In this document: positions 6,591 through 20,908 of the stretch, one piece after another
Layout: every line of letters starts with the position of its first letter
Numbering within the stretch: position 1 is the first letter of the stretch
Source: Candidatus Nanohalobium sp.
GTDB lineage: Archaea > Nanohalarchaeota > Nanosalinia > Nanosalinales > Nanosalinaceae
Assembly (NCBI GenBank): GCA_042216335.1
Contig: JBDGTY010000012.1
Location: 1-20,908 of the forward strand
DNA: 20,908 nt
Reading direction: 5' to 3'
The notes under the pieces: model-generated
Database searches by the model: none
Seen by the model: only the letters and a program-made list of their open reading frames with translations
Told to the model about the DNA's origin: nothing
Position numbers and translations under genes: made by a program

Positions 6591-6602
6591 AAAGTTTTTA
6601 AG
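6591..6602 (+). promoter_or_regulatory. Putative BRE/TATA box for the downstream RNA
   Basis: AAAG-TTTTTAAG directly after the exonuclease stop, about 25 nt upstream of the predicted RNA 5' end near 6621. Confidence 0.55.
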
Positions 6603-6620
6603 TGTAGTTCGTCAATACTG

Positions 6621-7135
6621 GCCTGAAGGAAAATGGCCTTGGTGCATGATACTGACTTCACTGGAAACATGTGGATGGCTCCGGTGAACTGCACCTATAA
6701 ACACAGGGCCAGGGCCAAATTCTCCACTATTAACTATCTGGCAGAGTAAAGCGGGATGAAGCCTTGACCTGTAGACCAGGTTAGTGGCTGACCGTGAAAA
6801 TACAAAACTTCTGGTGTGAAGCCACAGTTTCTCTGCCTCTGCAAGACACAGACAGAGTTCGTAGCTCTGTTATCGGAGGACTGTTCGGCTTCCGGGAGCA
6901 GGCTTTGCTTGAAGAGGTGAAGCCTGTTCCACGGAAATATTCTAACTCACAAAATTCAAACACAGTTTGAAAGACTTGGAAACAGGGTGAAACCTAATCA
7001 TGGATGCTAACACGCGACACTTCGAAGCCGAGTTGGAAGCACAGCACGAAGAACCGGTACAGGAAGCACGTGAGATTCACGCGGAAGCAGAAGTCGTCCC
7101 GGCAACAGCTCTTTAGATCAGCGCCGATTCCAGGC
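6621..7135 (+). ncRNA. Unassigned large structured RNA (~515 nt) with a kink-turn and an embedded short ORF
   Basis: Helices 6641-46/6690-95, 6657-65/6680-88, 6740-46/6831-37, 6851-57/6865-71, a 21-bp hairpin 6890-6936 with several G-U pairs, and 6955-61/6965-71; K-turn at 6751-63/6786-95; terminal GCCUG (6621-25)/CAGGC (7131-35). Confidence 0.7.
7000..7116 (+). CDS. 38-aa acidic peptide MDANTRHFEAELEAQHEEPVQEAREIHAEAEVVPATAL (absent from the ORF track)
   Basis: GGTGA RBS at ~6986-6990, ATG 7000, TAG 7114-16; Glu-rich like the host proteome. Confidence 0.6.
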   Translation: MDANTRHFEAELEAQHEEPVQEAREIHAEAEVVPATAL

Positions 7136-7161
7136 AAATAATAGTATGCTCCGGAGCAATT

Positions 7162-7644
7162 CTAGTTGTCCTGGAACGCTGCTGACTCAAAAGCTGCCCA
7201 GCCGTTGGCCATAGAGTCAAGTATCGATGTGAATGATCGAGCGGGTTTTATAACTTTTCTGCGGCCTTTAGAGCCTTCTCTCTCGCCGCGGTACTCCAGG
7301 TACTCGTACTTGATGACGCCCAGACGCCTCAGTTTGGGCAAAATGTTGTTCTTCAGGTTGGATTTTCCCTTTTCGTGGCCCCATTCATCGAAACTGTTCA
7401 GCTTCTCTGAATCTATCTCACCCTCGTCTTTCAGTTCTCTGAGGAATATCTTGGCGTACTTGTTCCTCTTTGGGCTCTGCTCCTCCGGGAAGAACAGGTC
7501 GACCATCTTCTCCCAGTTCCAGGCCCTGTCGCTCTTCCTGAACTTTTGCTCATCGAGAGGCAATGCCATGGAGTGTTTGGTGACGATGGTAGAGGTCTTC
7601 CGTGCGGTTTCGTCGACGAAAGGGTGTTCTTCGTCTTCTGTCAT
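7162..7644 (-). CDS. Hypothetical protein, possibly winged-helix
   Basis: 160-aa ORF with host-like composition; 'NNILPKLRRLGVIKYE' resembles a recognition helix plus wing. Confidence 0.7.
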   Translation of the reverse strand: MTEDEEHPFVDETARKTSTIVTKHSMALPLDEQKFRKSDRAWNWEKMVDLFFPEEQSPKRNKYAKIFLRELKDEGEIDSEKLNSFDEWGHEKGKSNLKNNILPKLRRLGVIKYEYLEYRGEREGSKGRRKVIKPARSFTSILDSMANGWAAFESAAFQDN

Positions 7645-7717
7645 ACCTTCTTTATTGTGTCTCCCGGTTTTTGAATCGACCGGTGAGTGTAAAAACCATC
7701 GAACCTATTTCCTGTGT

Positions 7718-8128
7718 ATGAGTAAAGGTGTGACTCCTGTTGTTGCCACGGTGCTTCTGATCTTCATCACTATCGGTGCGGCCGGGACGCTGTACACGAT
7801 GGTCGAGCAGAACATAGACCAGGGGAAGAAAGCGGCTCAGGATATCTCCCTGAAGGTCAGTGAGCTCAGAGTGGAGTCATGCTACCACAGATCAGGCAGA
7901 ACCAACATGGTCATAAGGAACGGCGGGGACAAGGCGATCAACGCATCAAAGATGAACCTTCTCCTGAACGGCAGCCTGGTTCCGAAATCCGAGTACAGCG
8001 TGGAGAACCCTATAGTCAACCAGGGCAACACCTTCACAGTCAACATGACAAAGTTCGGCAGGAAGACCAGTATAGAGCTGACAAACGGTCGGAACTCGCT
8101 TGAGCACGTCTGCATCTCCCTGGACTAG
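7718..8128 (+). CDS. Archaeal type IV pilin/archaellin-like protein
   Basis: Class III signal peptide MSK-G|VTPVVATVLLIFITIGAAG; real start is ATG 7718, not 7166. Confidence 0.88.
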   Translation: MSKGVTPVVATVLLIFITIGAAGTLYTMVEQNIDQGKKAAQDISLKVSELRVESCYHRSGRTNMVIRNGGDKAINASKMNLLLNGSLVPKSEYSVENPIVNQGNTFTVNMTKFGRKTSIELTNGRNSLEHVCISLD

Positions 8129-8168
8129 ACAACTCAGTAACTTAAGCTTTCAACATCCCTCACCTAGT

Positions 8169-8663
8169 ATGTACGACGAACTCTCCCGTGAACAGCTCGA
8201 GGAAGCCCTGAAGCAGATGGAAGAGGAAAAAGAAAGACTCGAGGAAGAAAAGGAAGAATGGGAGTCCAAGGCGAAGAAGGTCAAGGCCGACTTCGAGAAC
8301 TACAAAAAGAACCAGGACGAACGGAAACAGAAGTGGCAGCGCCGTGCAGAGGAAAATTTGGCCGAGGACATGATAGAGGTGCTTGACAACCTGGAAAGGG
8401 CGATACTTTCTGCCGACGAAGAGAACTCCGTGGTCAAAGGAGTCAAGATGGTCGCCGACCAGCTCTACGAGGAACTCGAAAAGAGAGGCCTAGAAAAGAT
8501 CGATGCGGAGGGAGAGGAGTTCGACCCAAGGCTCCACAGGGCCGTAGACACACGGGAACACGAAGAAGAGGACAAAGTGCTGGAACAGAAGCGGAAGGGC
8601 TACATGTTCGACGACAAGGTCCTGAGAGAGGCAGAAGTAGTAGTCAGCGAGAAAAACGACTGA
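8169..8663 (+). CDS. grpE: Nucleotide exchange factor GrpE
   Basis: 'ADFENYKK', 'VLDNLERA', 'FDPRLHRAV', 'KGYMFDDKVLREAEVVV'; next to dnaK. Confidence 0.95.
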   Translation: MYDELSREQLEEALKQMEEEKERLEEEKEEWESKAKKVKADFENYKKNQDERKQKWQRRAEENLAEDMIEVLDNLERAILSADEENSVVKGVKMVADQLYEELEKRGLEKIDAEGEEFDPRLHRAVDTREHEEEDKVLEQKRKGYMFDDKVLREAEVVVSEKND

Positions 8664-8716
8664 ACAGGGAAACCCTCTACTAACAGTTAAATTCCGGGAG
8701 CTCGAACCTTTCCAAC

Positions 8717-9037
8717 ATGTACAAACTGAAAATCTTCTTCCTTATGCTGACCATCTCAGCCAGCCTCACCATCGGAATGTTCACGCTATCAGCGACGGGG
8801 AACGCAGCATCCCGCATGGAGAACAAGGCAGAAAGGTACTCACAGGAAAGCATAATCTGCAACTACAAACTCAACAAGATGAAAGAGACCATGCAACCCG
8901 GAGAAAAGAAGAGCGTACCTGTAAGATGCTTCCAGAACGGAACACCACTGATCGAAGAACTGGCGCCACGCCACAGAGGCAAACTCATGACCAAGAAAAA
9001 AGACGGACTCTACATCTCTGGAGAGAAGATCGTCTGA
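8717..9037 (+). CDS. Hypothetical exported/membrane-anchored protein
   Basis: N-terminal hydrophobic helix, two Cys, basic composition. Confidence 0.65.
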   Translation: MYKLKIFFLMLTISASLTIGMFTLSATGNAASRMENKAERYSQESIICNYKLNKMKETMQPGEKKSVPVRCFQNGTPLIEELAPRHRGKLMTKKKDGLYISGEKIV

Positions 9038-9176
9038 AAAACACCTCTTCCTCAAAAAGATAGCAGTCAGATAACAGTCTAAAACAGCAGTATTGATCGA
9101 GAGGTCGGCCTCATTCAGATGCTTTAAAAATTTTTATTGTCGTAAACAAAAAACAGTAGTAGGTGAAACTCAAACA

Positions 9177-11093
9177 ATGTCAAAGATCGTCGGTATCGAC
9201 CTCGGTACGACCAGAAGCGCAGTAGCATCAGTAGAAGACGGAGAACCAAAAATCCTGGAAAACTCGGAGGGGGAAAGAGTAACACCCTCAGTAGTTGGAT
9301 TTGACGACGGAGAAAGACTCGTCGGAAAACCGGCGAAGAACCAGTTGATGACGAATGAAGAAAATACTGTTAAGTCGATCAAGCGGCATATGGGAGAGGA
9401 CTACGAGGTAACGCTGGACGGAGAAGACTACACTCCTCAACAGATCTCCTCCATGATCCTCCAGAAGCTGAAAAACGATGCCGAGGACAAGTTGGGAGAT
9501 GATGTCGAGAAAGCCGTAATCACAGTTCCAGCCCACTTCAACGACGCCCAGAGACAGGCAACAAAGGATGCAGGAGAGATCGCAGGCCTTGAAGTAGAGA
9601 GAATACTGAACGAGCCGACCGCTGCGGCACTCGCATACGGCCTCGACGATGAAAGCGAGAAAACCGTCTTGGTGTACGACTTCGGAGGAGGAACCTTCGA
9701 CGTAACCGTCCTCGAGATGGGAGACGGCGTCTACGAAGTCCAGTCAACCGAGGGAATCAACGATCTCGGTGGCGACGACTTCGACCAGGAGATCGTCGAC
9801 TGGGTTCTGGAAAAGTTCGAGGAAGAAAACGGCATCGACCTCTCAAACGAGGACGAAGCCATGCAGCGAATCCGAGAAAACGCTGAAGAAGCAAAGAAAG
9901 AACTCTCCAGCCGAAAACAGACCACGATAAACATCCCGTTCATCCACCAGGAAGACGGCGAAACATACAACATCGACTACGAGCTGACCAGGAGCAAATT
10001 TGAGGACCTTGTAGAGAACCTGATCCAGAGGACTACAGATCCCACCGAGACAGCAATCGAAGACGCAGGAATAGAGAAATCCGACATCGACGACGTGATC
10101 CTCGTCGGAGGAACAACCAGAGTTCCAGCAGTCAGGGAACACGTACAGGCAATTACCGGGATGGAGCCGGATCAATCCGTCAATCCTGCCGAAGCAGTTG
10201 CCCAGGGTGCAGCGATCCAGGCCGGAAGCATCTCCGGAGAGATGGACGACATGTTGCTACTCGATGTAGCACCGCTCTCACTTGGAGTCGAGGTCAAAGG
10301 AGGGCTCACAGAAACATTAATAGAGAAAAACACCACTATTCCTGCTGAGGAATCCAAGACGTTCACAACAGCACAGGACAACCAGTCCATGGTCACCGTC
10401 CACGTAGTACAGGGAGAAAGAGAGATGGCATCCGACAACAAATCCCTTGGGCAGTTCAACCTGCAGGGAATCCCGCCAGCACCGGCCGGACAGCCACAGA
10501 TCGAGGTAACATTCGAGATCGACGCAGACGGAATCCTCAACGTCTCCGCAGAAGAACAGCAGAGCGGAGAAGAAGCAAGCATCTCGATCGACGACGCCTC
10601 AAGGCTTGACGACGAAGAGATCGAGGAGATGAAGGAGGAAGCCGAGAAACACGAGGAGGAAGACGAGCTGAAACGTGAGTTCATCGAGACGAAGAACAAG
10701 GCCGACAGCATCGTCTCACAGGCAGAGACCCAAATCGACAACTTTGAAGACGAAGTCGAAGATGAACTAATCGAGGGAATTGAAGAAGCCATCGAAGACG
10801 TAGAGGAAGCCAAGGAAGAAGCAGAGGACATCGACGATCTGGAAGAAGCCTCGGAACACATCGATTCAGCCATCGAAGACCTGGAGGAAGAACTTCAGGA
10901 GATCGGCCAGGAGATGTACGGGGGAGAAGGTGCTCCCGGCGGAATGGGAGGCTTTGACCCAAGTAACATGTCCGAGGAAGACCTGAAGCAGGCAGCCCAG
11001 AACATGGGCGGAGCACCCGGACAAGGAGGAGACGACGAAGTAGTCGACGCAGACTACGAAGAAGTCGACACAGACGAGGAGAAAGAAGAGTAA
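9177..11093 (+). CDS. dnaK: Chaperone DnaK (Hsp70)
   Basis: [44 protein letters not shown]; lacks the ~24-aa subdomain IB insert (archaeal/Gram-positive type); AGGTGA RBS. Confidence 0.98.
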
Positions 11094-11122
11094 TGTTCTC
11101 TTCCTCCCTTTCTAAATCTCTG

Positions 11123-11141
11123 AAGCCACTGAAAGTGGCTT
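11123..11141 (+). other. Perfect 8-bp hairpin between dnaK and dnaJ (possible processing, attenuation or operator site)
   Basis: AAGCCACT-GAA-AGTGGCTT after a pyrimidine-rich tract downstream of the dnaK stop. Confidence 0.4.
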
Positions 11142-11170
11142 ACCCATGATCGAACATTGGTGAAAGTTCG

Positions 11171-12247
11171 TTGGCGAAAGAATACTACGAACTTCTAGGG
11201 GTTTCGGAAGACGCCTCGCAGGAAGAGATAAAGAAGGCCTACCGCAAAAAGGCGAAGAAGTACCACCCTGACTCCAACTCTGAAGAGGCTGACGAAGAGA
11301 AGTTCAAGAAGATAAACAAGGCTTACGACGTTCTCTCAGATGAAGAAAAGAGGAAGAAGTACGACAGGTTCGGAAAGCAGGGCGTTGAAGGCCATGCACA
11401 GAGAGGTCAGCGCCAAGCAGCCTCAAACTTCCAGGATCTTTTCGAGGAGATCTTCGGGGGCGGAGGCTTCGGAGGCCAGAGAGGCGGGAGAAGGCAGAGA
11501 AAAGGTAAAGACCTCAAGATGTCCACGACAGTTACTCTAGAGGATGCATACTCCGGAGTCGAGAAGACCTTCGAAGTAGAGCGTAAACAGCAGTGCCCTG
11601 AATGCGATGGGACCGGCTCGGAAACCGGAGAGACAGATACATGTGCCGAGTGCAACGGACAGGGAAGAGTCCGAAAAATAGAACAGTCAATCTTCGGCCG
11701 AACACAGACAGTGCAGGAATGTCCGGAATGCCACGGCACAGGAGAAGTACCGGAAGAAAACTGCAGCGAATGCGGCGGAGAAGGTCTGAAACAGCAGAAT
11801 GAGACGATCAGCGTCGATATACCTGCCGGAGTGCGCGACGGCCAGAGACTCAAGATGAGCGGCAAAGGCCACGAAAGCCGCAAAGGAAGGAACGGCGACC
11901 TCTACCTGGTCGTACATGTAGAAGAGGGCGAAAAAATCGAGAGAAGAGATCAAGACTTATTCACGACACTGAAGGTCGGAGCCGGCGACGCAGCACTCGG
12001 AAGAGAAGCCAGGATAGACCATCCGGAAGGAAAACTGAAGATCGAGATTCCTTCAGGCACACAACCCGGGCAGGTACTGAGAGTAAAAGGAAAAGGAATG
12101 CCCAAGAGGAGAAAAAGTGGCGATCTCTACATCAAGATAGACGTCGAGATACCGGAAAAAGCCGACGGAACAGAAGAACTGGAAGAACTTTCAGAGGAAC
12201 CTGAACAGAAGAAGAACTTCTTCGAGACAGTCAAGGACTTCATCTAG
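11171..12247 (+). CDS. dnaJ: Chaperone DnaJ
   Basis: J domain with HPD, G/F region, four CxxCxGxG repeats; TTG start preceded by GGTGA. Confidence 0.97.
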
Positions 12248-12255
12248 AACTAGGA

Positions 12256-12275
12256 AGCCCCGTCCGGGAGTAGAA
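12256..12275 (-). repeat. Degenerate copy of the tRNA 3' end (old att scar)
   Basis: AGCCCCGTCCGGGAGTAGAA matches AGCCCTGGCCGGGATTTGAA (20854-20873) at 16/20, same orientation, at the point where base composition changes. Confidence 0.55.
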
Positions 12276-12382
12276 TTAAGAGTTCACCTGTAGGGCTGAA
12301 AATTCTCAAGTTTGCAAGAATCTAATTCGGTTGTTCAAAGCTACTGGGTTGTAAAGATTTTGAAAAAAATATGGAAGTGAGG

Positions 12383-12790
12383 TTAGTAAGAGAAATCAAA
12401 TGATTCCTCTATTCCTTCTAACTCGTAGTCTTCTAACCCAAATTCTCTACTTCTCATTTCTGATGGTTGCTTGTTTCTCAGAATCTGTCCGACAATCTTT
12501 TCTGGGTCATCTGGAGTAGTGGTTTCTTCTACTGCGTAGGAAGCTGCTTCTTCTGGTGCCATACCTTCGTCCAATCCATCAAGCATCGTATTTACTTGTT
12601 TTACAAAGACTGGCAGGTATGAACCTTCAAACCCATCTGCTTTTTCAGCCATTTCTTCTTCAAGACTTACATATGCTTGAGCAGCTTCTTCAAAATCTGC
12701 GTCTTCTCTTCTAACTCCGTTGCCTGCAATTTCGGCACTGTAGTCAAGTGCGTCTTGCAAAAAACCTTTGACTGCGATGTGCTGTTTCAT
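12383..12790 (-). CDS. Acidic hypothetical protein in an AT-richer segment
   Basis: 135-aa ORF; TTTATAA upstream (~12814-20); codon style differs from the core genes. Confidence 0.7.
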   Translation of the reverse strand: MKQHIAVKGFLQDALDYSAEIAGNGVRREDADFEEAAQAYVSLEEEMAEKADGFEGSYLPVFVKQVNTMLDGLDEGMAPEEAASYAVEETTTPDDPEKIVGQILRNKQPSEMRSREFGLEDYELEGIEESFDFSY

Positions 12791-12953
12791 ATGTTACCTA
12801 TTAGTGACAAACATTTATAAAGTTGATTGTTGAAACACCTGTCCTCGAGATTTTATATTCTGAATTGACTGTTTACAGGTTCAAATCCCCTGACCATCTG
12901 AGATAAAAATTTTAAACAGAGAGACTCTATTCCTGCCGGAAAAGGCAAAGCTA

Positions 12954-12966
12954 AGCCCTGGCCGGG
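12954..12966. repeat. att core, tRNA-distal copy (AGCCCTGGCCGGG)
   Basis: Identical to 20854-20866. Confidence 0.9.
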
Positions 12967-13049
12967 GTAAACAGCATCTGTCAATTAAAGTGGGCTATAT
13001 TGGTATTAATTCGCCAATTTTAAGTAACTTTAACGTTCTAAATAACGTT

Positions 13050-13202
13050 ATGAGTTACAAACTTCAAGTCAAAGACTCTACAGACCAAGCAACAATCACA
13101 GTGCCAAAGAACATGAGAAAAGCAAAAGGATGGGAAGACGGACAAGAACTAGAGTGGAAGATAAACGACAAAGGGAACCTAGAGCTTGAAGAAGCTAAAT
13201 AG
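13050..13202 (+). CDS. AbrB/MazE/SpoVT-family DNA-binding protein
   Basis: 'QATITVPKNMRKAKGWEDGQELEWKI' swapped-hairpin signature; ATG 13050. Confidence 0.85.
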   Translation: MSYKLQVKDSTDQATITVPKNMRKAKGWEDGQELEWKINDKGNLELEEAK

Positions 13203-13240
13203 TCGAAAGATACTTTAGAACTTTTCACGAGTTCTGGAAT

Positions 13241-14587
13241 ATGGATAAAGAAAAACTACAATCCATCGTTGAGACTGGAGAAGATCAGAAAACAGAGTTT
13301 AAACGTTCTGTAAGTGATATAGCTGTAGTAGTTACTTCTTTTGCTAACGCCGAGGGAGGTAAACTTATTATCGGTTTAGAGGACGATGGCAGCAGAGTTC
13401 CAGGGCTTGAAAAATGGAATTTAAATGACAAAAGATCTGATGTCCAGGATGAAATAAATACGGTAGAGGGAGTTCTGAATACCAATATAGAGGCGGTAGA
13501 TGGACTATTGGTTGTGGATGTAGATGGAAATAAAGATGCAGTGAATAAAGCTCCTTCTGGGTATTACATAAGACAAGATACTGTAGATCAATCGATGTCT
13601 CATGACCAGATTAGAGCTTTGATGGAAGAAAGTGGAGATATAAACTTTGAGCAGGTTGAGTGCCGTAGATTCCAATATCCTGAAGACGTTGATCCTAATG
13701 CAGTTGATAAGTTTCAGGAACGTGCGAAAATTTCGGATGAAGAAGTTGAAAACGATTCAATGCTTAGACATCTAGGTCTTGCACATTCAAAGGAAGGTAA
13801 AATAGAGGTAAATAATGCAGGAGCTATTCTTTTTGGAGTTAACCCAGAAAGATTTGTTCCTAACTCAGGTATCCAGTGTATATCATTTGAGTCAGAAGAT
13901 GACGATATAGAATGGGTAGAAAAGAAAGAGATTAACTCTCCGCTTATATTGGCGGTTTTTGAGGCCATAAATTTTATTCACAGTAATACTAGATCGAAGA
14001 GAAGAGTCAAAGACACAGGCAGAGAAACAGTAAATCAGTACCCAACTAATGCTCTGAGAGAGGCTCTGGTCAATGCAGTCGTGCACAGGGACTACCACAA
14101 TCAAAGGCAAAAAACTCAAGTAAAGGTATATCCTAATAGAGTAGAAATAAGCAATCCTGGAGGCCTTATAGGCAATATGTCAATAGATGATCTTTGGGAA
14201 GATGAATCAATACAAAGAAACCCTACTATAGCCAGTGTAATGCAAAGAATGGAGCTTGCTGAAGAAATGGGGACAGGAATACAGAGAATAACAAAAGAGA
14301 TGACTGATAGAAATTATCCAAAGCCTGATTTTGTGGACAATGGAAAGTTCGTGGTAAATTTGATAGGTAGGGAAATGCCTCAAGACCTCAACCAACGGCA
14401 GAGAAGGGCAATTAGACACCTATACTTCTCAGAAAAAATCACTTCTTCTGATTATCAAGAAATAGTAAATGGAGAAATATCCAGAAAAACAGTCTTGAGA
14501 GACTTGAATAATCTGATAGAGAAAGGCTGGATAGAAAGAAGAGGAGAAGGAAGTGACACACACTATATACTGAACGAAAATAGGTGA
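13241..14587 (+). CDS. Schlafen/AlbA_2 + HATPase_c_4 (RecG-C-like) + C-terminal wHTH protein
   Basis: 'GEDQKTEFK...SFANAEGGKLIIGLEDDG', 'ALREALVNAVVHRDY', 'ISNPGGL', 'RNPTIA', 'EEMGTGIQRI', 'SRKTVLRDLNNLIEKGWIERRG'. Confidence 0.9.
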   Translation: MDKEKLQSIVETGEDQKTEFKRSVSDIAVVVTSFANAEGGKLIIGLEDDGSRVPGLEKWNLNDKRSDVQDEINTVEGVLNTNIEAVDGLLVVDVDGNKDAVNKAPSGYYIRQDTVDQSMSHDQIRALMEESGDINFEQVECRRFQYPEDVDPNAVDKFQERAKISDEEVENDSMLRHLGLAHSKEGKIEVNNAGAILFGVNPERFVPNSGIQCISFESEDDDIEWVEKKEINSPLILAVFEAINFIHSNTRSKRRVKDTGRETVNQYPTNALREALVNAVVHRDYHNQRQKTQVKVYPNRVEISNPGGLIGNMSIDDLWEDESIQRNPTIASVMQRMELAEEMGTGIQRITKEMTDRNYPKPDFVDNGKFVVNLIGREMPQDLNQRQRRAIRHLYFSEKITSSDYQEIVNGEISRKTVLRDLNNLIEKGWIERRGEGSDTHYILNENR

Positions 14588-14850
14588 CAAAACGTGTCAA
14601 AAGGTGTCACATTAATGTCAAGAGAGGTCTAGAAAGTACCTATAGGTATCTATCAACACCTATACACCCCCTCCCTCTGTGTCACGGCGGTGTCAAGGGG
14701 AGGGGAGGGGTACCCTCAGTAGTGGCCGGCCATGGCCATCCGCCAGCACCTCATAAGGTACCAGGGATACACCCCATAGGCGGGAGGCCCCTCATGGGCT
14801 GGCAGGTACCCATGGGTACACCCTTGCATGGATAGACCCTCCATCCATGG
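14585..14850. repeat. GC-rich palindrome/iteron-like non-coding cluster (candidate origin)
   Basis: TGTCA at 14595, 14605, 14616, 14680, 14691; GGTACC at 14709, 14757, 14805; CCATGG at 14730, 14810, 14845. Confidence 0.55.
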
Positions 14851-14905
14851 ATTATTGATGTATCCATGTTAGACCTAGACCAAACACTATTCTATCCTAG
14901 AACTA

Positions 14906-15484
14906 CTATCTATCTGAGGAAGACCGAAGATGAATTTCACCTAAACCAAGTTTCTTGAAATCTACTTCCTCATTCATGACCTCCATAAGATTCTGCGACC
15001 CTATACTTCCCACTAGAAATATAGCTAATCCAAACACCAAAACTAAAAATATAGACAAAATATATCTCAAAACTCCCTCAATTAGATTGGTGGACCACAC
15101 AATCTCATAGACCTGAATAAAAGTAAATATAAACAAAGAGAACGTAAATATGGTTTCTACAGCCGCCGATTTCTTCTCTTGGTTAATTAAAGTAGCGTTA
15201 ATCCTCCTATTCTGAGTAAGAAGAGAGCTAAGTTTACTATTTTGATAAAAATCCTCTCCTTTCTCTTCCAAACTAACGTTACTGACGCCATCTATGTGAA
15301 TTAACCCCAGCCTACTAACTCTTTCGATAAAGTTCTCATCATAACCTGTCTCTCTGGCCACTTTGTTCAGTTTAACTTCCGATCTAGCCTCCAGTTTTTC
15401 GGATAAGAGATAATCTATCAAACCCCTAATTCTCTCTTCTTCCAAATCTGAAAGCCCCTCCTCCATACATACTATTTTCCACAT
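14906..15484 (-). CDS. Hypothetical membrane protein (soluble N-terminus plus two TM helices)
   Basis: 192-aa ORF (start may be ATG 15466), two hydrophobic helices, AT-rich. Confidence 0.75.
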   Translation of the reverse strand: MWKIVCMEEGLSDLEEERIRGLIDYLLSEKLEARSEVKLNKVARETGYDENFIERVSRLGLIHIDGVSNVSLEEKGEDFYQNSKLSSLLTQNRRINATLINQEKKSAAVETIFTFSLFIFTFIQVYEIVWSTNLIEGVLRYILSIFLVLVFGLAIFLVGSIGSQNLMEVMNEEVDFKKLGLGEIHLRSSSDR

Positions 15485-15617
15485 TAAAGTCTAAAATCTA
15501 ATCAGAAACTTCCCCAAAAATCCTACCCACACAATGAAACACAAAAATGTCAGCCTCGAAGAACCTAAAGGCCTGCTATACCAAAAAATTGAAGACAGAG
15601 CAGTATAAACTTTACGT

Positions 15618-15844
15618 ATGAAAGAATCAGACAGACTTCAAATAGAGTACCAAAGAGCGGAAATCTTCTTCATAGGGGCGTTAACAGTGTTTTACTAGTC
15701 CTAGAAGTGATTAAAATGACTTCAGGCCTAACAGCAAGCCTAACCAATCTCGTTGCCTACATTGGTTCAGGAGGACTCTTGATTATCGGTGCTAAATCAC
15801 TTCTAAGTGCAGAAAAACATAGAGGAAAAATATTGGAAGATTAA
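15618..15844 (+). pseudogene. Frameshifted small two-TM protein
   Basis: MKESDRLQIEYQRAEIFFIGALTVF continues after a -1 shift at the T run 15690-93 as LLVLEVIKMTSG...YIGSGGLLIIGAKSLLSAEKHRGKILED*. Confidence 0.5.
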
Positions 15845-15868
15845 GGAGTAACTTTCCAGACGGTTTTC

Positions 15869-16057
15869 TCATTGCCGTTTACCCACTTTGCTCTCGAAGA
15901 CCTTGCCATAACTCTCTAACTCCTTGAGATGCTTCTTCACAGTCTTCTGATTAGTTCCCAGCCTCTTTCCAAGCTGGCTCTCGTTATGTGGAAACTCCTC
16001 GAGCGCTTCCAGAATCTCCTGCTTGATCTGGTAGTCCTTACGCTTAGACTCTTGCAT
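15869..16057 (-). CDS. Winged-helix HTH protein; probable frameshift in the wing (natural end at 15841)
   Basis: 'EILEALEEFPHNESQLGKRLGTNQKTVKKHLKELESYGKV'; GGAGGTGA RBS before ATG 16057; the +1 frame continues KWVNGNEKTVWKVTP*. Confidence 0.75.
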   Translation of the reverse strand: MQESKRKDYQIKQEILEALEEFPHNESQLGKRLGTNQKTVKKHLKELESYGKVFESKVGKRQ

Positions 16058-16178
16058 CGATTTTCTCACCTCCACAAAAACCGCCTATAATACAGGTTTT
16101 AACCGACACACCCAATGATGACAACTGCGGAACAACCCCGTATCTCTTCTGATTAGGTAAGGGCAAAGAAGAAACCAT
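16044..16178 (-). CDS. 44-aa micro-ORF (MVSSLPLPNQ...KIDARV)
   Basis: TGATG coupling to the upstream stop, GAGGTGA RBS, bridges the gap between neighbours. Confidence 0.4.
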   Translation of the reverse strand: MVSSLPLPNQKRYGVVPQLSSLGVSVKTCIIGGFCGGEKIDARV

Positions 16179-16753
16179 CAAGCAGTCACCTCAATCTGCT
16201 CTAGGTTCAAGAACCAATCTGGCCTTTCTCCCTGTAAATCAGCGACCTCTTCCTGTAATTGTTCTACTTCCTGACGAAGATCTTCAAACTCATCCTCATC
16301 AAATACTAGCCTCTCAACCTTCTTATCGAAAGCAGGAGTGTCTTTAATTTCCTCATCATTCATATCCTGCCATGCACCGGCTCTATCCTTAAGATTCTCT
16401 AAAACCTGTTCTTCAGCCTCTTCTCTATCAACAAAGTCTTCTTCAGATTTTTCTTCTAACTTTTCCTGTTTCTCTTGTAACCTCTCCTTCTTGTCCTTCA
16501 ATGTCTTCTGCTCTTTTCTTTCCTCCTTAATCCGCTCTAATTTTTCCTTTTCCTGCCTCATATCTTCTATCTCTTCATCCAGTACCTCAATCTTCTCTTC
16601 TAAGCTTAGAGTCTCTTCTTCCTCTAGTTTCTGCTGAAAGAAGTCTGTAGGCCCCTCGTAATGCTCCTTAAGATGATTTTTCTTTTCATCAATGAGCTGC
16701 TTAATTTTCTTATTATGGTAAATTTCGGTTCTACCTCCACTCCATTTACTCAA
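16178..16753 (-). CDS. Coiled-coil Glu/Lys-rich hypothetical protein
   Basis: 191 aa, heptad-like E/K content; GGAGGTGA RBS before the TTG start. Confidence 0.8.
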   Translation of the reverse strand: MSKWSGGRTEIYHNKKIKQLIDEKKNHLKEHYEGPTDFFQQKLEEEETLSLEEKIEVLDEEIEDMRQEKEKLERIKEERKEQKTLKDKKERLQEKQEKLEEKSEEDFVDREEAEEQVLENLKDRAGAWQDMNDEEIKDTPAFDKKVERLVFDEDEFEDLRQEVEQLQEEVADLQGERPDWFLNLEQIEVTA

Positions 16754-16925
16754 ACCCAGTCACCTCCATCCATACAGAAAAACCACTGGTGAAACTAACC
16801 CATAGGGTATAGGTGCCCGAGTACCCGTACACATACCCGGGTAAACAACCATTGAACCACTTTTCAGCCTTCAGAGGCTTTCTTTTTGTCCCCGGGTACT
16901 CCCCGGGTAAAAGTAAGAACATCAT
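16746..16925 (-). CDS. 59-aa micro-ORF (MMFLLLPGEYPG...EVTGFE) overlapping CCCGGGTA repeats
   Basis: ATGA overlap with the upstream stop, GAGGTGG RBS, open across the whole gap; atypical composition. Confidence 0.35.
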   Translation of the reverse strand: MMFLLLPGEYPGTKRKPLKAEKWFNGCLPGYVYGYSGTYTLWVSFTSGFSVWMEVTGFE

Positions 16926-17158
16926 GAAACCACCTCAATATCAGTGCGTGCTATCGAAGAACCATCAGATTCGATAGGTATGTTTTCATCCTTAATCACC
17001 GACTTGAGGAAATTAGAGGCGTCTGAAGTCCTTGAGTAAGGTTCATTACATTTAGTAAGGAGCTTACAAGCCTTTCTGCGGTTAATTTCACTCTGCTGCC
17101 CGAGAACCTTCATAAGAAGTCTAAAGGCCTCATTCTTGGAATCAGTATCAAGCTCCAA
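16922..17158 (-). CDS. Hypothetical protein
   Basis: Track ORF 16922-17167; the GAGGTGA RBS favours TTG at 17158. Confidence 0.65.
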   Translation of the reverse strand: MELDTDSKNEAFRLLMKVLGQQSEINRRKACKLLTKCNEPYSRTSDASNFLKSVIKDENIPIESDGSSIARTDIEVVS

Positions 17159-17291
17159 CCCTCTCACCTCTCAAAGCTGCCGTATCCGCTACTATCGTCT
17201 CCCGACTGCAGCATTCAGTGCACCTATTTAATCCTCCCATATTGGTTTTCTCTACTTCAGCCCTGCACTCACGGCAGAAGTAAACACTCAT
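17148..17291 (-). CDS. 47-aa CxxC...CxxC zinc-finger microprotein (absent from the ORF track)
   Basis: MSVYFCRECRAEVEKTNMGGLNRCTECCSRETIVADTAALRGERVGA; ATGA overlap; GAGGTGG RBS. Confidence 0.7.
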   Translation of the reverse strand: MSVYFCRECRAEVEKTNMGGLNRCTECCSRETIVADTAALRGERVGA

Positions 17292-17539
17292 TGGATACCA
17301 CCTCTGTTTACTGCCTTTAGGCCTTTCTTAACCAGTTTCCGGACTGTTTCGGCAAACGTTATGCCATGGGCATCCTGGATGCCTTCCACTTCTCTGTAGG
17401 TATCTGCTTCGAATCTTACTGTGCTTTGAAGCTTCTGTCCTGTCCTGGTTGGAACCGAATTGCTGCTTTTATTTATGTTCTCGTACATATCCAATGTGTT
17501 CGACGCATTGGAGGCCTCTACGGTCTCCTTACTTTTCAT
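17288..17539 (-). CDS. Ribbon-helix-helix (CopG-like) protein
   Basis: 'STVRFEADTYREVEGIQDAHGITFAETVRKLVKKGL'. Confidence 0.75.
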   Translation of the reverse strand: MKSKETVEASNASNTLDMYENINKSSNSVPTRTGQKLQSTVRFEADTYREVEGIQDAHGITFAETVRKLVKKGLKAVNRGGIQ

Positions 17540-17799
17540 CTTGCAGTTTTCACCTCTGTTCTCTGGAAAAAGTTCATAGTATCGGGAAGGAAGATCCCAC
17601 CCAGTAGGCTTTCATCTCCTCCTTCCTCCAGCCTTTCACTGCTTGTAGGCCGGTATTTTCTCAGTCGTTGGGCGCAACATAGTCGGGTACTCAAGATATG
17701 TGACGAGTTGCCAGCAGTCAGTCGGGTTAAATGTGTTCTACCTATAGGTAGAGTCTTGGCCGTGTTTGATACTGTAACGGCCTTATCATGCTTTAACAC
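17536..17799 (-). CDS. Hypothetical protein
   Basis: Track ORF 17536-17808; the GGAGGTG RBS favours GTG 17799; its stop overlaps the next ATG; basic, atypical composition. Confidence 0.4.
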   Translation of the reverse strand: MLKHDKAVTVSNTAKTLPIGRTHLTRLTAGNSSHILSTRLCCAQRLRKYRPTSSERLEEGGDESLLGGIFLPDTMNFFQRTEVKTAR

Positions 17800-17890
17800 C
17801 TGAAACACCTCCTTTCTGGACCTCAGGGTTCTTCTGCTCTATAACATCAACAAGAATCTCCTCAACCAACTCATCGACAGATTCACTCAT
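17786..17890 (-). CDS. 34-aa acidic micro-ORF (MSESVDELVEEILVDVIEQKNPEVQKGGVSGVKA)
   Basis: Start overlaps the end of the upstream RHH gene; acidic amphipathic helix. Confidence 0.5.
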   Translation of the reverse strand: MSESVDELVEEILVDVIEQKNPEVQKGGVSGVKA

Positions 17891-18029
17891 TGGAACCACT
17901 TTCTAACTGATTAAGCTGCTCAAGAAGCCCTCTACGAGCTATTTCAGATTTTGAAAGTCCTGTTTGTTGCTTTACGTCAGCCAGTCTTTCTTCCAGCTGA
18001 TCTGCGATTTGAACGTGAAGGTTACCCAT
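17883..18029 (-). CDS. Ribbon-helix-helix (CopG-like) repressor
   Basis: MGNLHVQIADQLEERLADVKQQTGLSKSEIARRGL; AGGTGG RBS. Confidence 0.85.
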   Translation of the reverse strand: MGNLHVQIADQLEERLADVKQQTGLSKSEIARRGLLEQLNQLESGSNE

Positions 18030-18099
18030 TTTGTTACCACCTACCACACGGTTTGTTAAACCTGACTTATATAGGTTTCGCATGGCATGTGGTAGGTAT
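18030..18099. promoter_or_regulatory. Symmetric bidirectional promoter/operator
   Basis: ACCTACCACA (18039-48)/TGTGGTAGGT (18088-97) and AAACCT (18058-63)/AGGTTT (18073-78) flank a central TTATATA. Confidence 0.75.
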
Positions 18100-18753
18100 A
18101 TGCTGTCTGATGTCCAGAAGAAAGTACTTAACTCAAGGCAATCTCTAGAGGTACTGTCGGTAATAAAGGATAAAAATGAAAGCTATGGGAAGGAAATAGC
18201 TAGAGAGTTAGGTAAAAGCCAGTCGTCTATAAGTAGAACCATAAGACAGCTTAAAGACTCGAAATTAATTACCAAAGGCAGAAGAGAACAGGCACAGTAC
18301 TATAAAATAGATTATGAGGGCGTAGCTGATCTATATTTGGATATATTGGAAGAAGGAAAGGAGAAAAATGAGGCATATCAAGAACAATTAGCTAAAAAAC
18401 CAGAATATGAGGATGAAGACTGGATAACTCCAGAACTATTCGATCAATTTATTCCCGAAGCTAAAGCCAAAAAGTTTGCCAAGGCCTACTATCGAGAACT
18501 ATTCAACAACATTTCTAAAATAACAGACTATCATGAAAACATAGATTTAGAGGATTTCATAGTCAAAAGCGCGTACCAAAGCCTAATTTTAACAAGATAT
18601 AATAAAGAAGAGAACTATGAAGTGGTTGGAGATATGTTAGGACTCCTACAAGATTATTTAGACTTCTTTGACCCTCATGTAGCCACTGAAGATATAATTG
18701 AAGATAATTTTGTAAGTCTTGAGGATAGAGAAGAGATTGGTGCACCAGATTAG
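18100..18753 (+). CDS. ArsR/MarR-like wHTH transcriptional regulator
   Basis: 'SYGKEIARELGKSQSSISRTIRQLKDSKLITKGRREQAQYYKI'; ATG 18100. Confidence 0.88.
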   Translation: MLSDVQKKVLNSRQSLEVLSVIKDKNESYGKEIARELGKSQSSISRTIRQLKDSKLITKGRREQAQYYKIDYEGVADLYLDILEEGKEKNEAYQEQLAKKPEYEDEDWITPELFDQFIPEAKAKKFAKAYYRELFNNISKITDYHENIDLEDFIVKSAYQSLILTRYNKEENYEVVGDMLGLLQDYLDFFDPHVATEDIIEDNFVSLEDREEIGAPD

Positions 18754-19172
18754 ATTCCTATAACCTCGTAATCCGGCCTGCTTGGGTTTCCTTCTCCTTG
18801 TATCAGTTCTTTTTGTTCCATGTCTTTGATGTAGTCTCTTAGTCTTGGCCGTGTTTTGGGCCATTCTTTTTCTTTGTCGTACATCTCATAGATACTGGCG
18901 AGGTTTATTCCAGGGTTTTTCTTGATGATTCTGTAGAGGAGTTTTTGGTCCTTGTTCAGTTGTTTCTCTATTTCTGGTTCTATTTCTACGGCGTCTAGGC
19001 GGTTGAAGGACAGGTTTTCGTGGTCCATGACTGTCTTTATCCCGTTTTTCAGGACCATCTGTACTGCTTCTTCGAAGGAGTTGAAGTGTTGGGAGAGGTC
19101 GTTAATCCTCTCCCTGTCCTCCTCGCCGAGCTGGTCTTTCAGGTTGACGTAGGTCTTCTCCACTTCTACCAC
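18750..19172 (-). CDS. Protein with C-terminal wHTH resembling the Orc1/Cdc6 C-terminal domain
   Basis: 'LNKDQKLLYRII...SIYEMY...PKTRPRLRDYIKDMEQKELIQGEG' recalls the haloarchaeal Cdc6-like wHTH; no AAA+ domain. Confidence 0.7.
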   Translation of the reverse strand: MVEVEKTYVNLKDQLGEEDRERINDLSQHFNSFEEAVQMVLKNGIKTVMDHENLSFNRLDAVEIEPEIEKQLNKDQKLLYRIIKKNPGINLASIYEMYDKEKEWPKTRPRLRDYIKDMEQKELIQGEGNPSRPDYEVIGI

Positions 19173-19174
19173 CT

Positions 19175-19501
19175 TTACAGCATCTCTCCTATTCTTGGTT
19201 GGCTGTTTCCTGGACCTTCTTTGAGGTAGAAGTGTTGGCTGCTCTGTATGAAGCTGTATAGGCGGCCTTCGTTGACCTCTAGTCTTTCTGCTACGTCCTT
19301 CAAATGCTTGGATTTGGAGGCTACTGCTTCGCTTACTTGGCCAGGTGCTAAGTTCCTGTTTTCGTCCTTGTGCAGTGTGCTGTAGTGCCTTTTGACCTTT
19401 GCCTGTGTGTCAAACTTTTTCCTGCACTTTGTACATTGGTAGGAACCGTCGTCTAAGGCCTTGATTCCTTTGAATCCGAAGTTGTAGACTTCGTTGGCCA
19501 T
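19175..19501 (-). CDS. C2H2 zinc-finger protein
   Basis: YQCTKCRKKFDTQAKVKRHYSTLH; TAATG coupling to the integrase stop. Confidence 0.8.
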   Translation of the reverse strand: MANEVYNFGFKGIKALDDGSYQCTKCRKKFDTQAKVKRHYSTLHKDENRNLAPGQVSEAVASKSKHLKDVAERLEVNEGRLYSFIQSSQHFYLKEGPGNSQPRIGEML

Positions 19502-20793
19502 TACTGCATCACCTCGTTTTCTACAACTTTCTCTGCTATGCCACGGATGTCGTCTCTGGATTTTCCTACTTCTTCCTCTATCATCTCTGACTTGATTTCT
19601 TCCTTCATCTCCTTTATCTTGGCTTCTCTGTACAGGTCAGATGTCTTGAGTGTTTCGCCACAGTTCATGCAGTTATCTGTATCGAAGCCGTTGATTGTTC
19701 CGCATTCATGGCATTCGGAAGGCGTAAGGATTCTTGCTTCTTTCTCCTTGGCGTTCTCCTCGCCGTGTTCCAGTCCAAGGCTTTCAGCTACTCCTTTTTC
19801 TACGTCTTCTTGGGCGACTCTGCAGTAGTGTCTGACTATCTCGCTTCCTGGGGCCCAGTTCATGTGCTTACAGATCCATGCCTCGTTCATGTCTTGGCGC
19901 GCCCAGTAGCTGGCTCTGCCTTTTCTGAAGGCGTGAGGATTTACCTTGATTTTTTCAGGAATATCGGCCTCTCCTTTCGCCCTCTTCAGAATCTGGTTGG
20001 TTGCTCCTGAACTTAGCTGGTTTCCTTGCTGTACGCTTCTGAAGACGAATGCTTCCGGGTTATGTCCCTGTGGGTCGGACTCTCTGTGTTTGTACATGAA
20101 TGGATAGGCTTCTGCCATAGGTACCGAGTGGTCGCCTCCCGTCTTGGTGTCTCTGAACACTACCTTACCTATATCGTTGGTGAACTTCACGTCTTTCCAC
20201 TTCAGACCAAGCACTTCACCGTTTCTACCTCCTGTACTCCATAAAAGCATGATATAGGCTTTATCCCTGGTTCTTACTGTGTTTTTTACCAGCTTCTTTA
20301 CCGTCTCGGGGCCTGGTAGTTTGTCAGGATCTGTGTATTCTCTAGTTACTGTCAAGGTAAAGGAGATTATTTCCTCGGCCTCAAAGCCTTCCGGTAGATT
20401 GAGGTTGCCCTGGTAGTTGTCTACGTAGTCGGTGTAGAGCTTCCTGATTCCTTTCTTTATTTCTCTCTTAGTGCTTGGAGCATAGGGTTCGCCGTTCTGC
20501 TTGCAGATATTATCTGTCTGAAGCTCTCCTACATACTCTGTGACCTTGGTCTTGTCTACTTCCTCTATCTCCCAGTCACACCTTTTGAGCATCCGGAATA
20601 TGGTTCTGAGGTACCGGTTCATCCTGCTCTTTGAGTGTCCCTTGCTCTGCATGTAGGATAGGAAACTAGGTATATCACTAGTCCCTCTTACCAGGAGGTC
20701 TTTGTCTCGTTCAGCGATGTGCTGTGATTCTTTGATTTTGTTGATAGTGTTGTCTAATGCGCCGTCTAGGTTGTGGATGTCGCCTCGTGTCAT
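19501..20793 (-). CDS. Tyrosine recombinase/integrase with C-terminal zinc ribbon
   Basis: Catalytic R (TGGRNGE), K (DTKTG), HxxR (PHAFRK), W (HMNW), Y (RHY); CHEC...CMNC. Confidence 0.95.
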   Translation of the reverse strand: MTRGDIHNLDGALDNTINKIKESQHIAERDKDLLVRGTSDIPSFLSYMQSKGHSKSRMNRYLRTIFRMLKRCDWEIEEVDKTKVTEYVGELQTDNICKQNGEPYAPSTKREIKKGIRKLYTDYVDNYQGNLNLPEGFEAEEIISFTLTVTREYTDPDKLPGPETVKKLVKNTVRTRDKAYIMLLWSTGGRNGEVLGLKWKDVKFTNDIGKVVFRDTKTGGDHSVPMAEAYPFMYKHRESDPQGHNPEAFVFRSVQQGNQLSSGATNQILKRAKGEADIPEKIKVNPHAFRKGRASYWARQDMNEAWICKHMNWAPGSEIVRHYCRVAQEDVEKGVAESLGLEHGEENAKEKEARILTPSECHECGTINGFDTDNCMNCGETLKTSDLYREAKIKEMKEEIKSEMIEEEVGKSRDDIRGIAEKVVENEVMQ

Positions 20794-20853
20794 TTGACAT
20801 AGTCATCTCCACCCACCTTTTACTTTGACCGAATTAATTGACAGAAAACTGTT

Positions 20854-20908
20854 AGCCCTGGCCGGGATTTGAACCCGGGACCTGTCCCTCACTCAATTTT
20901 CTGAAAGC
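20854..20908 (-). tRNA. 3' part of tRNA-Thr (probably CGU) with a 37/38 intron; 5' half outside the window
   Basis: Minus strand A-GGGAC-AGGUC-CCGGG-UUCAAAU-CCCGG-CCAGGGC-U equals positions 38-73 (20889-20854). The GCCCUGG acceptor and U73 fit archaeal Thr; upstream UGAG-UG fits the 3' half of a bulge-helix-bulge. Confidence 0.8.

Follow-up and report, generated by a model that had tools for sequence, protein, structure and literature searches.

What kind of mobile element sits at the tRNA-Thr gene that ends a nanohaloarchaeal contig, and how can elements of this subtype, which have a conserved coiled-coil protein but no helicase or primase, persist, and what does that protein do? These questions are raised by a 20,908-bp stretch of DNA (hereafter, the window) that is the entire contig C4 of G000, a metagenome-assembled genome (MAG) of Candidatus Nanohalobium sp. 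(1.02 Mb, 74 contigs, 96% complete). The original prediction, made from the nucleotide sequence and its open reading frames (ORFs), described a complete tRNA-integrated element with the architecture of a satellite akin to phage-inducible chromosomal islands (PICIs), or else a minimal integrative element or a reduced provirus. The analysis presented here points, with a probability of about 0.7, to an integrative plasmid-like (cryptic integrated) element of a nanohaloarchaeon with defense-like cargo. Little of the mobile DNA in DPANN archaea has been charted. The window anchors a family of small integrating elements with a readable plan, in which the backbone for integration and switching is fixed, and both the replication slot and the slot for defense-type cargo can be swapped.

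An element at the 3' end of a tRNA-Thr gene

Besides a tyrosine integrase, the element encodes some dozen small DNA-binding proteins, along with a cargo protein of the Schlafen/AlbA_2-HATPase type. It is bounded by two exact copies of the direct repeat AGCCCTGGCCGGG (Table 1), with 7,887 bp between the 13-nt cores. By our estimate, about 0.6 repeated 13-mers are expected by chance in 9 kb, so that the repeat alone is weak proof, and the case is borne by its position and context. ARAGORN calls no tRNA in the window because the contig terminates within the tRNA gene. The last 55 nt of the window (20854–20908) are identical to positions 1–55 of another contig of the same genome, C46, which carries on its minus strand a tRNA-Thr(CGT) gene with a 64-nt intron; therefore, the right 13-mer is the 3' end of this tRNA (the 3' half of the T-stem, the 3' acceptor strand and the discriminator). 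As a correction to the original prediction, the window contains only a part of the tRNA gene.

The G+C content is 0.511 in the host part of the window versus 0.423 in the element, and the fall to 0.39–0.42 starts at about 12.3 kb. The host genes, in positions 1–12247, include those for family B DNA polymerase, an RNase H-like exonuclease and a pilin, and the grpE-dnaK-dnaJ genes. In two of the three same-genus genomes (G047 and G048), dnaJ is followed, at a distance of 0.7–1.2 kb, by an equally oriented tRNA-Thr(CGT), and the 7.9-kb insert is missing; for the third (G049), the 1.5 kb fetched downstream of dnaJ contain no tRNA. The integrase gene is intact and lies whole beside the tRNA, with attP outside the gene, so that the element is not of the SSV type, which splits the integrase gene. 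The residues R176, H287, R290 and Y323 are invariant in all four aligned family members, as in tyrosine recombinases. The element occupies the 3' end of tRNA-Thr(CGU) and restores that end by its own copy of the core. The prediction of a complete tRNA-integrated mobile element of a nanohaloarchaeon is borne out by the att cores, the tRNA on C46, the G+C step, the unoccupied site in two same-genus genomes, and the nanohaloarchaeal integrase loci described below.

Perfect inverted 11-mers, CTGTCAATTAA on the left and TTAATTGACAG on the right, lie directly inside the cores, as does the pair AAACAG and CTGTT. The left 11-mer is probably a core-type binding site of the integrase. The non-coding arm between the start of the integrase gene and the right core is 92% identical over 52 nt in the element of the SG9 genome, with integrases that are only 43% identical, and is also conserved in three other relatives (L005, L115 and L090).

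The break of the contig series at 20854, along with the same pattern at the ends of two relatives (L001 and L002), was considered as a sign of excision polymorphism; this idea was dropped because the break falls at the 3' end of the tRNA, a point at which co-occurring species cease to be conserved in any case. In sequencing runs X3 and X4, many contigs contain the tRNA part with other flanks. Six contigs of G000 (C47, C53, C62, C63, C66 and C46) start only a few bases from the 3' end of a tRNA; such assembly breaks may represent further variable insertions, or merely the conservation of tRNAs among co-occurring strains. Of the 21 tRNAs called by ARAGORN in this genome, 14 have predicted introns.

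A modular family in Nanohaloarchaea

A search of species-representative genomes with the integrase identifies three loci, all in Nanohaloarchaea. Two of these are whole contigs that start within a tRNA and stop just beyond a second copy of its 3' end: L001 (7364 bp), with 15-nt tRNA-end repeats 7268 bp apart, and L002 (8334 bp), with 17-nt repeats 8247 bp apart. The third, L003 from the complete SG9 genome, also occupies tRNA-Thr(CGT), with 13-nt cores 6917 bp apart. According to blastp comparisons, the window element and all three loci share a backbone that consists of the integrase, an ArsR-like protein of the winged helix-turn-helix (wHTH) type encoded on the opposite strand, a ribbon-helix-helix (RHH) protein, a protein of 83–136 aa, a wHTH protein of 61–68 aa, and a distal AbrB protein. 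At the level of the phylum, the integrase family is represented in 30 of 70 genomes (match at E ≤ 1e-20). Among 18 regions fetched, 17 held the integrase, and a tRNA gene was judged adjacent in 12; distal repeats of 11–29 nt were found in seven and a repeat of only 10 nt in one, delimiting elements of 5.4–12.3 kb. No distal repeat of at least 10 nt is present in L116, L118, L119 and L130, some of which are ended by contig ends. A metagenome scan added relatives from the best 80 of 148 confirmed relative-encoding stretches, about eight of which are close.

The content of the central slot varies. It holds an MCM helicase in L003 (PF00493, 3e-36), a superfamily 3 helicase of the D5_N/DUF5906 type together with a Cdc6-like AAA+ protein containing the Cdc6 lid domain in L002, a DUF5906 helicase in L132, a 1068-aa protein with weak matches to LigD PrimPol and the CHC2 zinc ribbon in L007, and a 1128-aa Toprim protein in L010. 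A Toprim protein is also encoded by L121, a tenth, looser relative with only 10-nt repeats; the Toprim primase fusions in this family comprise about 1000–1130 aa. In L001, the slot is similar to that of the window, with a 178-aa coiled-coil protein and small ORFs. Closely related integrases (53–67% identity) are accompanied by different slot contents, so that the slot is exchanged.

Three of the elements delimited in the phylum survey share the backbone. One is L115 (10.6 kb, in the complete genome G052, contig C1), which is located at tRNA-Thr(TGT) and encodes the coiled-coil protein; both subunits of a type III restriction-modification system (Res, 884 aa; Mod, 602 aa) form its cargo. Another is L132 (8.4 kb), at tRNA-Cys. 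The third, L127 (C43:22345–27750; 5.4 kb), at tRNA-Ala(GGC), is a second family member in G000 itself; its integrase is distant (25% identity), and it also encodes AbrB, the coiled-coil protein and an RHH/zinc-ribbon protein.

A profile of the coiled-coil protein, compared with every ORF of 40 aa or more from the window, L001–L012 and L115–L132, matches only in the window, L001, L115 and L127. Accordingly, the nine backbone-sharing element types divide into four with the coiled-coil protein and five with a helicase or primase, and 0 of 9 encode both. The four elements with the replicase-less layout differ in cargo and even in integrase. A plasmid-type replication protein (MCM, Cdc6/Orc1 or PrimPol-superfamily 3 helicase) is lacking in the window but is encoded in L002, L003, L007, L010, L121 and L132, and it is these proteins in the slot that place the family with integrative plasmids. 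The original prediction would have been overturned by homologs that are much larger and carry structural or replication modules; the backbone-sharing relatives, at 5.4–10.6 kb, are not much larger, but five of the nine types do carry replication proteins.

The cargo slot is similarly variable. The 448-aa cargo protein of the window yields partial-length matches in PADLOC (pAgo, 2.5e-29; Aga_SIR2-PNTD, 4e-23) and can be described, from these matches, as defense-like; it is 70% identical to the protein encoded at the same position in L003. The slot contains a SoFic-type Fic protein in L001 (PADLOC, 2e-116), two unknown proteins in L002, and Mrr in L132.

In three metagenome contigs of relatives, L005, L009 and L010, the AbrB gene on the minus strand, a core resembling a tRNA 3' end with flanking inverted repeats, and the integrase gene on the plus strand stand back to back, and L009, which comes from another sample, bridges both ends of L010. 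From their gene order, these AbrB-Int junctions are as expected of the circular (attP) form. The L005 junction corresponds block for block to the arms in the window: ACTCATA.CGTTAT, AATAT(T/A)GCCCAC, inverted repeat, core, inverted repeat, and TTCGGTCAAAGT.AAAGGTGGGTGGAGATG. L010 and L132 share the same tRNA-Cys core, and the possibility that they are the circular and integrated forms of one element was rejected because they are otherwise unrelated at the nucleotide level. Positions 1–313 of L010 match neither the other end of L010 nor L009, and the AbrB gene contains the join, which falls in a 95-nt stretch that is repeated with 97% identity; this segment may be variant cargo or an assembly chimera.

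Population data for the window element come from the assembled contigs of four runs (X1–X4), not from raw reads, and the uncovered parts in X2–X4 are uninformative. In X1, which may be the source run, the host-flank contig stops at 12966 with a depth of 70.3, compared to 56.4–64.5 for the contigs of the element, depths that would suggest an occupancy of the site near 0.8, and two other contigs go on from 12966 with different letters. The consensus of the latter (agreement 0.77) matches the tRNA continuation in 19 of 30 positions and the element continuation in 5 of 30, as might be seen if part of the population had the site unoccupied, although this is a hint only. In X2, a run from another study, short contigs are 90–99% identical to parts of the element, and one contig (depth 4.9, side 31) joins 12908 to 20854, which hints weakly that a relative has the site without the insert.

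Four regions (L117, L120, L123 and L124), with distant integrases and no backbone gene, were left outside the family counts. L123 (G069, contig C2) and L124 (G004, contig C2) are elements of about 10–11 kb with 18- and 29-nt tRNA-end repeats, respectively, and many unassigned ORFs of 100–250 aa; L123 also encodes a small AAA ATPase. These two might be proviruses of nanohaloarchaeal pleomorphic or spindle-shaped viruses.

Plasmid, satellite, island or provirus

Family scans of the window ORFs (18 ORFs against Pfam, 18 against PHROGs and 13 against NCBIfam) match no capsid, terminase or other packaging ATPase, Rep, primase, helicase or relaxase among the scanned ORFs, as had been read from the sequence, and also no VirB4/VirD4 or structural family. 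The label "DNA helicase" of phrog_12156, which the AlbA_2/HATPase_c_4 protein matches, was discounted as a name only, the protein having no Pfam helicase domain. A tblastn search for helicase or primase remnants within the element finds none (all E > 1), and a search of the genome with five replication proteins of relatives detects only the host MCM, Cdc6 and one 46-residue fragment. Only two ORFs, those of the integrase and of the AlbA_2-HATPase protein, are longer than 240 aa, and the largest unassigned ones have 192 and 191 aa. Morphogenesis genes are also missing from the relatives scanned with Pfam, and a blastn search with the whole element finds no match in the phage and plasmid collections. 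A deletion relic of a larger element is not supported, given the tblastn result and the recurrence of the replicase-less layout in four elements.

An integrase with att sites and, within the limits of library cover, no virion or conjugation module is the composition of a cryptic integrated element. According to Krupovic et al. 2019 (PMC6563490), such elements of Thaumarchaeota encode an integrase along with MCM, Cdc6 or PrimPol-superfamily 3 helicase, or no recognizable replication protein, a replication protein being optional in the definition. The similarity to the window element and its family extends to the small size, the integration into tRNA genes with short direct repeats, the tyrosine integrase, the lack of virion and conjugation genes, the variable replication proteins, and the typical wHTH and RHH proteins and restriction or defense cargo. 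Unlike the thaumarchaeal elements, the window element resides in a member of the Nanohaloarchaeota (DPANN), and its family has a traceable backbone (the ArsR-like wHTH/RHH switch, the distal AbrB and the conserved integrase-proximal arm); in the members without a helicase, an RHH-like coiled-coil protein recurs in the replication slot. Krupovic and colleagues reportedly described, in 2010, integrated elements and plasmids with MCM in Euryarchaeota and Crenarchaeota. The SG9 element resembles these, with MCM between the integrase and the cargo at the same tRNA-Thr site, whereas the window element lacks MCM, and its sole MCM-related trace is the Cdc6-type winged helix in the 140-aa protein. A full-text literature search yields no description of this element family. 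The closest publication is a preprint on other elements (Zhou et al. 2025, 10.1101/2025.02.15.638363), the supplementary tables of which may list related plasmid-like contigs.

As an integrative plasmid, the element could function as follows. The integrase would recombine attP with the tRNA 3' end via the inverted repeats flanking the core and the conserved arm upstream of its gene, and the wHTH/RHH pair, bound to the palindromic operator, would keep the element quiescent. Upon excision, the circle would be a low-copy plasmid, in which AbrB and the integrase gene are divergent across attP, so that integration would separate them. Because no helicase or primase is encoded, the element would be copied passively while integrated. 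As a circle, it might recruit the host MCM and Orc1, both of which are present in the genome, through its own DNA-binding proteins; the protein with the Cdc6-type winged helix, the RHH-like coiled-coil protein and an array of GTGWCA sites are candidates for this role. For organisms that lack genetic tools, the family offers specific att sites as well as candidates for an operator and for a vector backbone.

Several points weigh against this assignment. The profile libraries cover archaeal virus proteins poorly, so that the failure to match a capsid protein is a weaker argument here than it would be for a bacterial element; five small ORFs (81, 59, 90, 45 and 83 aa) have no assignable fold, and the 192-aa protein, with its two membrane helices, could be structural. 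The nearest viral integrases are those of pleomorphic archaeal viruses. Neither the circular form nor the empty site of the window element has been seen, and no attP joint of it is present in the contigs of the four runs. The replication of a helicase-less circle by host factors is purely conjectural, and relatives conserve neither the GTGWCA array nor the other non-coding regions. Finally, the mutual exclusion of coiled-coil protein and helicase is drawn from nine types only, and L005, L007 and L009 are incomplete contigs.

A helper-dependent satellite would lack replication and virion genes because these are borrowed: a helper virus, or a helicase-bearing sibling, would flip the switch and cause excision, replication and/or packaging. 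Compatible with this scenario are the failure to recognize a helicase, primase, capsid or packaging gene, the compact divergent switch with its palindromic operator, the occurrence of the replicase-less layout as a conserved recurrent subtype rather than an accident, and a depth of the element in X1 not above that of the host flank, as expected if it is quiescent. Moreover, satellites of plasmid origin have been proposed for nanohaloarchaeal spindle-shaped viruses (Zhou et al. 2025). According to the same preprint, the elements denoted SRCEs encode a spindle-virus capsid protein and/or an AAA+ ATPase along with a Rep or primase-helicase, and were found as free circles; such a capsid protein and/or ATPase, with a plasmid Rep, is also kept by pSSVx. 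The window element shares with SRCEs and pSSVx, as described there, the small size (2.7–9 kb) and plasmid derivation of elements of haloarchaea and nanohaloarchaea, and the idea of a DPANN hyperparasite; it differs from them in lacking the spindle-virus major capsid protein (searched via PHROGs and Pfam only), the AAA+ ATPase and Rep, and in being integrated by its own integrase.

The resemblance to PICIs is one of layout only: both are smaller than 15 kb, with the order integrase, divergent regulators, small genes and cargo, and a divergent switch beside the integrase is not a satellite-specific trait. Satellites are told apart by the functions that they borrow and those that they retain. PICIs keep a primase-replicase with an adjacent origin, and genes that redirect packaging (terS and capsid-size genes). 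The window element has no primase-replicase with origin, no terS and no capsid-remodeling gene, has no known helper and belongs to another domain of life. Morphogenesis genes are found in none of the close family members, the tblastn search with five replication proteins reveals no helicase-type sibling in a MAG that is 96% complete, and nothing links the element to a virus. These differences leave a satellite unlikely, and the PICI-like assignment is not upheld; on present evidence, the window adds no new kind of satellite.

The satellite idea survives, as a possibility, solely for the replicase-less subtype. The window element, L001, L115 and the second copy in the same genome could form a hitchhiker lineage, in which the integrase, switch and att machinery of the family are retained, the coiled-coil protein has replaced the helicase or primase, and replication and spread are provided by a helicase-bearing sibling plasmid or a nanohaloarchaeal virus. 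We consider such a lineage doubtful; if real, it would be a satellite that integrates and exploits another mobile element, within a DPANN symbiont that itself lives as an obligate symbiont of haloarchaea.

The element might also be an immobile genomic island, that is, a former mobile element that is now a fixed carrier of regulatory and defense genes. No excision product is seen in the contigs of the four runs, no replication gene is encoded, and the same genome harbors decayed relatives, including a probable relic next to the left core (see below). However, the 13-nt cores are identical, the inner inverted 11-mers are perfect, the integrase is full-length and retains its catalytic residues, all backbone genes are open, and the host flank in X1 forks at 12966 with the difference in depth given above, although this last point is a hint only. 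A fixed island is accordingly rather improbable, and the integrative plasmid remains the preferred reading.

With respect to viruses, tblastn with the integrase retrieves 12 records of the phage collection at E ≤ 1e-3, none of them named SNJ2, the presence of which in the collection was not checked. The SNJ2-type integrase depends on small accessory ORFs. The best viral matches are the integrases of pleomorphic viruses of Archaeoglobi (25–26% identity over 81–90% of the protein), such as the integrating viruses ThalV2 and Geoglobus acetivorans pleomorphic virus 1, and a scan of IMG/VR with the integrase alignment yields only one distant locus. Pleomorphic viruses are also of similar size (9–16 kb) and integrate, and the nanohaloarchaeal DNPV-1 (9.1 kb), of the group that includes DNPV-1/ANPV-1, likewise has no recognizable replication protein. 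Even so, a reduced or cryptic provirus of a pleomorphic or spindle-shaped virus, with structural proteins too small or divergent to be recognized, for which the membrane protein of 192 aa and the hydrophobic ORF of 45 aa could be cited, is highly improbable: nothing beyond the low integrase identity supports it, the VP3/VP4/AAA+ ATPase morphogenetic module is absent, with no ORF of the size of a VP4-like spike and no unassigned ORF above 192 and 191 aa, PHROGs give 0 structural matches, the membrane protein is not a core gene because its homolog is found in only one relative, and the close relatives carry plasmid-type replication proteins.

Gene content and probable traces of older insertions

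The genes listed in the original prediction (integrase, zinc finger, wHTH protein, divergent wHTH/RHH pair, run of small proteins, and cargo) are all present (Table 1), and the element has the order integrase, divergent switch, small genes, repeats and cargo.

Table 1. Features of the integrated element and its left flank, by position in the window
Positions	Strand	Feature	Remarks
12256–12268		Third, degenerate copy of the tRNA-Thr 3' end, AGCCCCGTCCGGG	11/13 matching; 8 nt past the dnaJ stop
12269–12953		Low-G+C stretch, 685 nt	G+C 0.388; one acidic 135-aa ORF, 12383–12790 (-)
12954–12966		attL core, 13 nt	Identical to tRNA 3' end; host-flank contig of run X1 ends exactly at 12966
12978–12988		Inner inverted repeat CTGTCAATTAA	Partner of 20834–20844; same layout around the attP-like core of L005
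13050–13202	+	AbrB/MazE (SpoVT-AbrB) type DNA-binding protein, 50 aa	PF04014, E 4e-5, just under cut-off
13241–14587	+	Cargo protein, 448 aa: AlbA_2 (Schlafen-like), HATPase_c_4 and C-terminal wHTH	PF13749, 3e-24; PF04326, 4e-11
14553–14905		Non-coding region between convergent genes	Six GTGWCA sites, then G+C-rich stretch with CCATGG palindromes
14906–15484	-	192-aa protein, N-terminal wHTH-like domain, two C-terminal hydrophobic helices	No family match
15869–16075	-	Small wHTH protein, 68 aa	Backbone gene; HTH_5, 3e-5
16178–16753	-	191-aa coiled-coil protein, RHH-like N-terminus	Marks the replicase-less subtype; homologs only in L001, L115, L127
16922–17167	-	81-aa ORF	No family match
17148–17291	-	47-aa CxxC...CxxC zinc ribbon	No family match
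17288–17539	-	83-aa protein, RHH-like C-terminal part	Backbone gene; phrog_4738, transcriptional repressor, 7e-4
17883–18029	-	RHH protein (CopG/RelB-like), 48 aa from internal ATG	NF048017, 6e-5; half of divergent switch
18030–18099		Putative divergent promoter/operator, 70 nt	Perfect inverted 10-mers ACCTACCACA / TGTGGTAGGT
18100–18753	+	ArsR/SmtB-like wHTH protein, 217 aa	Backbone gene; MarR_2, 4e-6
18750–19172	-	140-aa protein, C-terminal 65 residues Cdc6/Orc1-like winged helix	No Pfam match
19175–19501	-	C2H2 zinc-finger protein, 108 aa	PF00096, 4e-4, below cut-off
19501–20793	-	Tyrosine integrase, 430 aa	PF00589, 2e-22; N-terminal SAM-like domain; C-terminal CxxC...CxxC zinc ribbon
20797–20847		Conserved non-coding arm, integrase start to att core	Contains TTAATTGACAG (20834–20844)
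20854–20866		attR core	Last 13 nt of the tRNA
20854–20908	-	tRNA-Thr(CGU), 3' 55 nt: 3' exon and part of the 64-nt intron	Remainder on C46

The 217-aa wHTH protein is probably the maintenance repressor. A search of the PDB with its family profile identifies SmtB (2e-5), and its AlphaFold2 (AF2) model consists of a confident wHTH domain (residues 1–70) and a long helix. Its homologs adjoin the integrase in L001, L002, L003, L007 and L115; a homologous-protein search with this sequence returned only the protein of the window itself. The RHH protein on the other side of the putative operator is 50–55% identical to its homologs in L001 and L003. In the operator region, TTATATA is enclosed by the nested inverted 10-mers and the pair AAACCT / AGGTTT. 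The wHTH/RHH switch module lies between the two copies of an exact 16-nt direct repeat, AGTCTTGGCCGTGTTT (17752–17767 and 18841–18856); by our estimate, this repeat is not expected by chance in 8 kb and may be a scar of module exchange or a binding site.

The C-terminus of the 140-aa protein encoded next to the switch is 35% identical, over 65 residues, to that of the Cdc6-like protein of L002 (pairwise E = 5e-7), and the protein also matches the host Cdc6 encoded on C53 (6e-6); phmmer against the PDB finds nothing below E = 0.4.

The small ORFs run leftward, from 17539 to 15869. The 83-aa RHH-like protein has homologs of 116–136 aa in L001, L002 and L003, and the 68-aa wHTH protein has homologs in L002, L003, L007, L009/L010 and L132. 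In the AF2 model of the 191-aa coiled-coil protein, two short helices are followed by a 74-residue helix (pLDDT 70), and a profile search of the PDB yields only keratin and GCN4-type coiled coils; a long stalk bearing an RHH-like DNA-binding head would be consistent with the model. A 384-nt gap separates the gene of the 68-aa wHTH protein from that of the 192-aa protein. The latter has a homolog in L001 only (34% identity), and its structural neighbors in the Atlas are wHTH regulators, all of them weak (scores ≤ 0.84, TM ≤ 0.50) and to be taken as leads only.

The AbrB gene belongs to the backbone at the att-distal end: homologs are distal in L001, L002, L003, L115, L127 and L132, and adjoin the integrase in L005, L009 and L010. 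Between the cargo gene and the gene of the 192-aa protein, 318 nt are purely non-coding. The GTGWCA sites in this region are spaced at 10 nt (three) and 11 nt (two), and the predicted non-coding repeat cluster is real: positions 14553–14690 contain six of the ten plus-strand sites of the window, and 0 of 2000 shuffles reach five sites in 120 nt, for a motif that was picked after inspection of the sequence. The region is a candidate protein-binding array or origin. Regions 14560–14920, 15470–15880 and 17800–17890 have no nucleotide counterpart in the fetched loci or in the rest of the genome, and Rfam (E ≤ 1, positions 12200–20908) gives two chance-level rows only.

To the left of the element, the degenerate third copy of the tRNA-Thr 3' end is probably the outer att of an older insertion; positions 12255–12275 are 86% identical, over 21 nt, to the tRNA-Thr 3' end of G047 (E = 0.03). 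The low-G+C stretch between this copy and the attL core is probably a relic left by an element that occupied the same tRNA earlier. Neither the stretch nor its ORF has a Pfam or PHROG match, and it has no counterpart downstream of dnaJ in G047, G048 and G049. Taken together, the relic and the degenerate copy lead us to propose that tRNA-Thr is a repeatedly used site. Inside the relic, on the strand opposite to tRNA-Thr, there is a T-arm-like fragment (GGTTCAAATCC...; 12867–12900, plus strand), in which neither ARAGORN nor Rfam recognizes a tRNA.

Elsewhere in G000, two loci look like decayed elements. One of these (C43:1507–2656) is a frameshifted integrase gene, in two frames, that is 36–52% identical to family members; the other (C50:14468–16880) contains an AbrB gene 78% identical to that of the window, with integrase fragments alongside.

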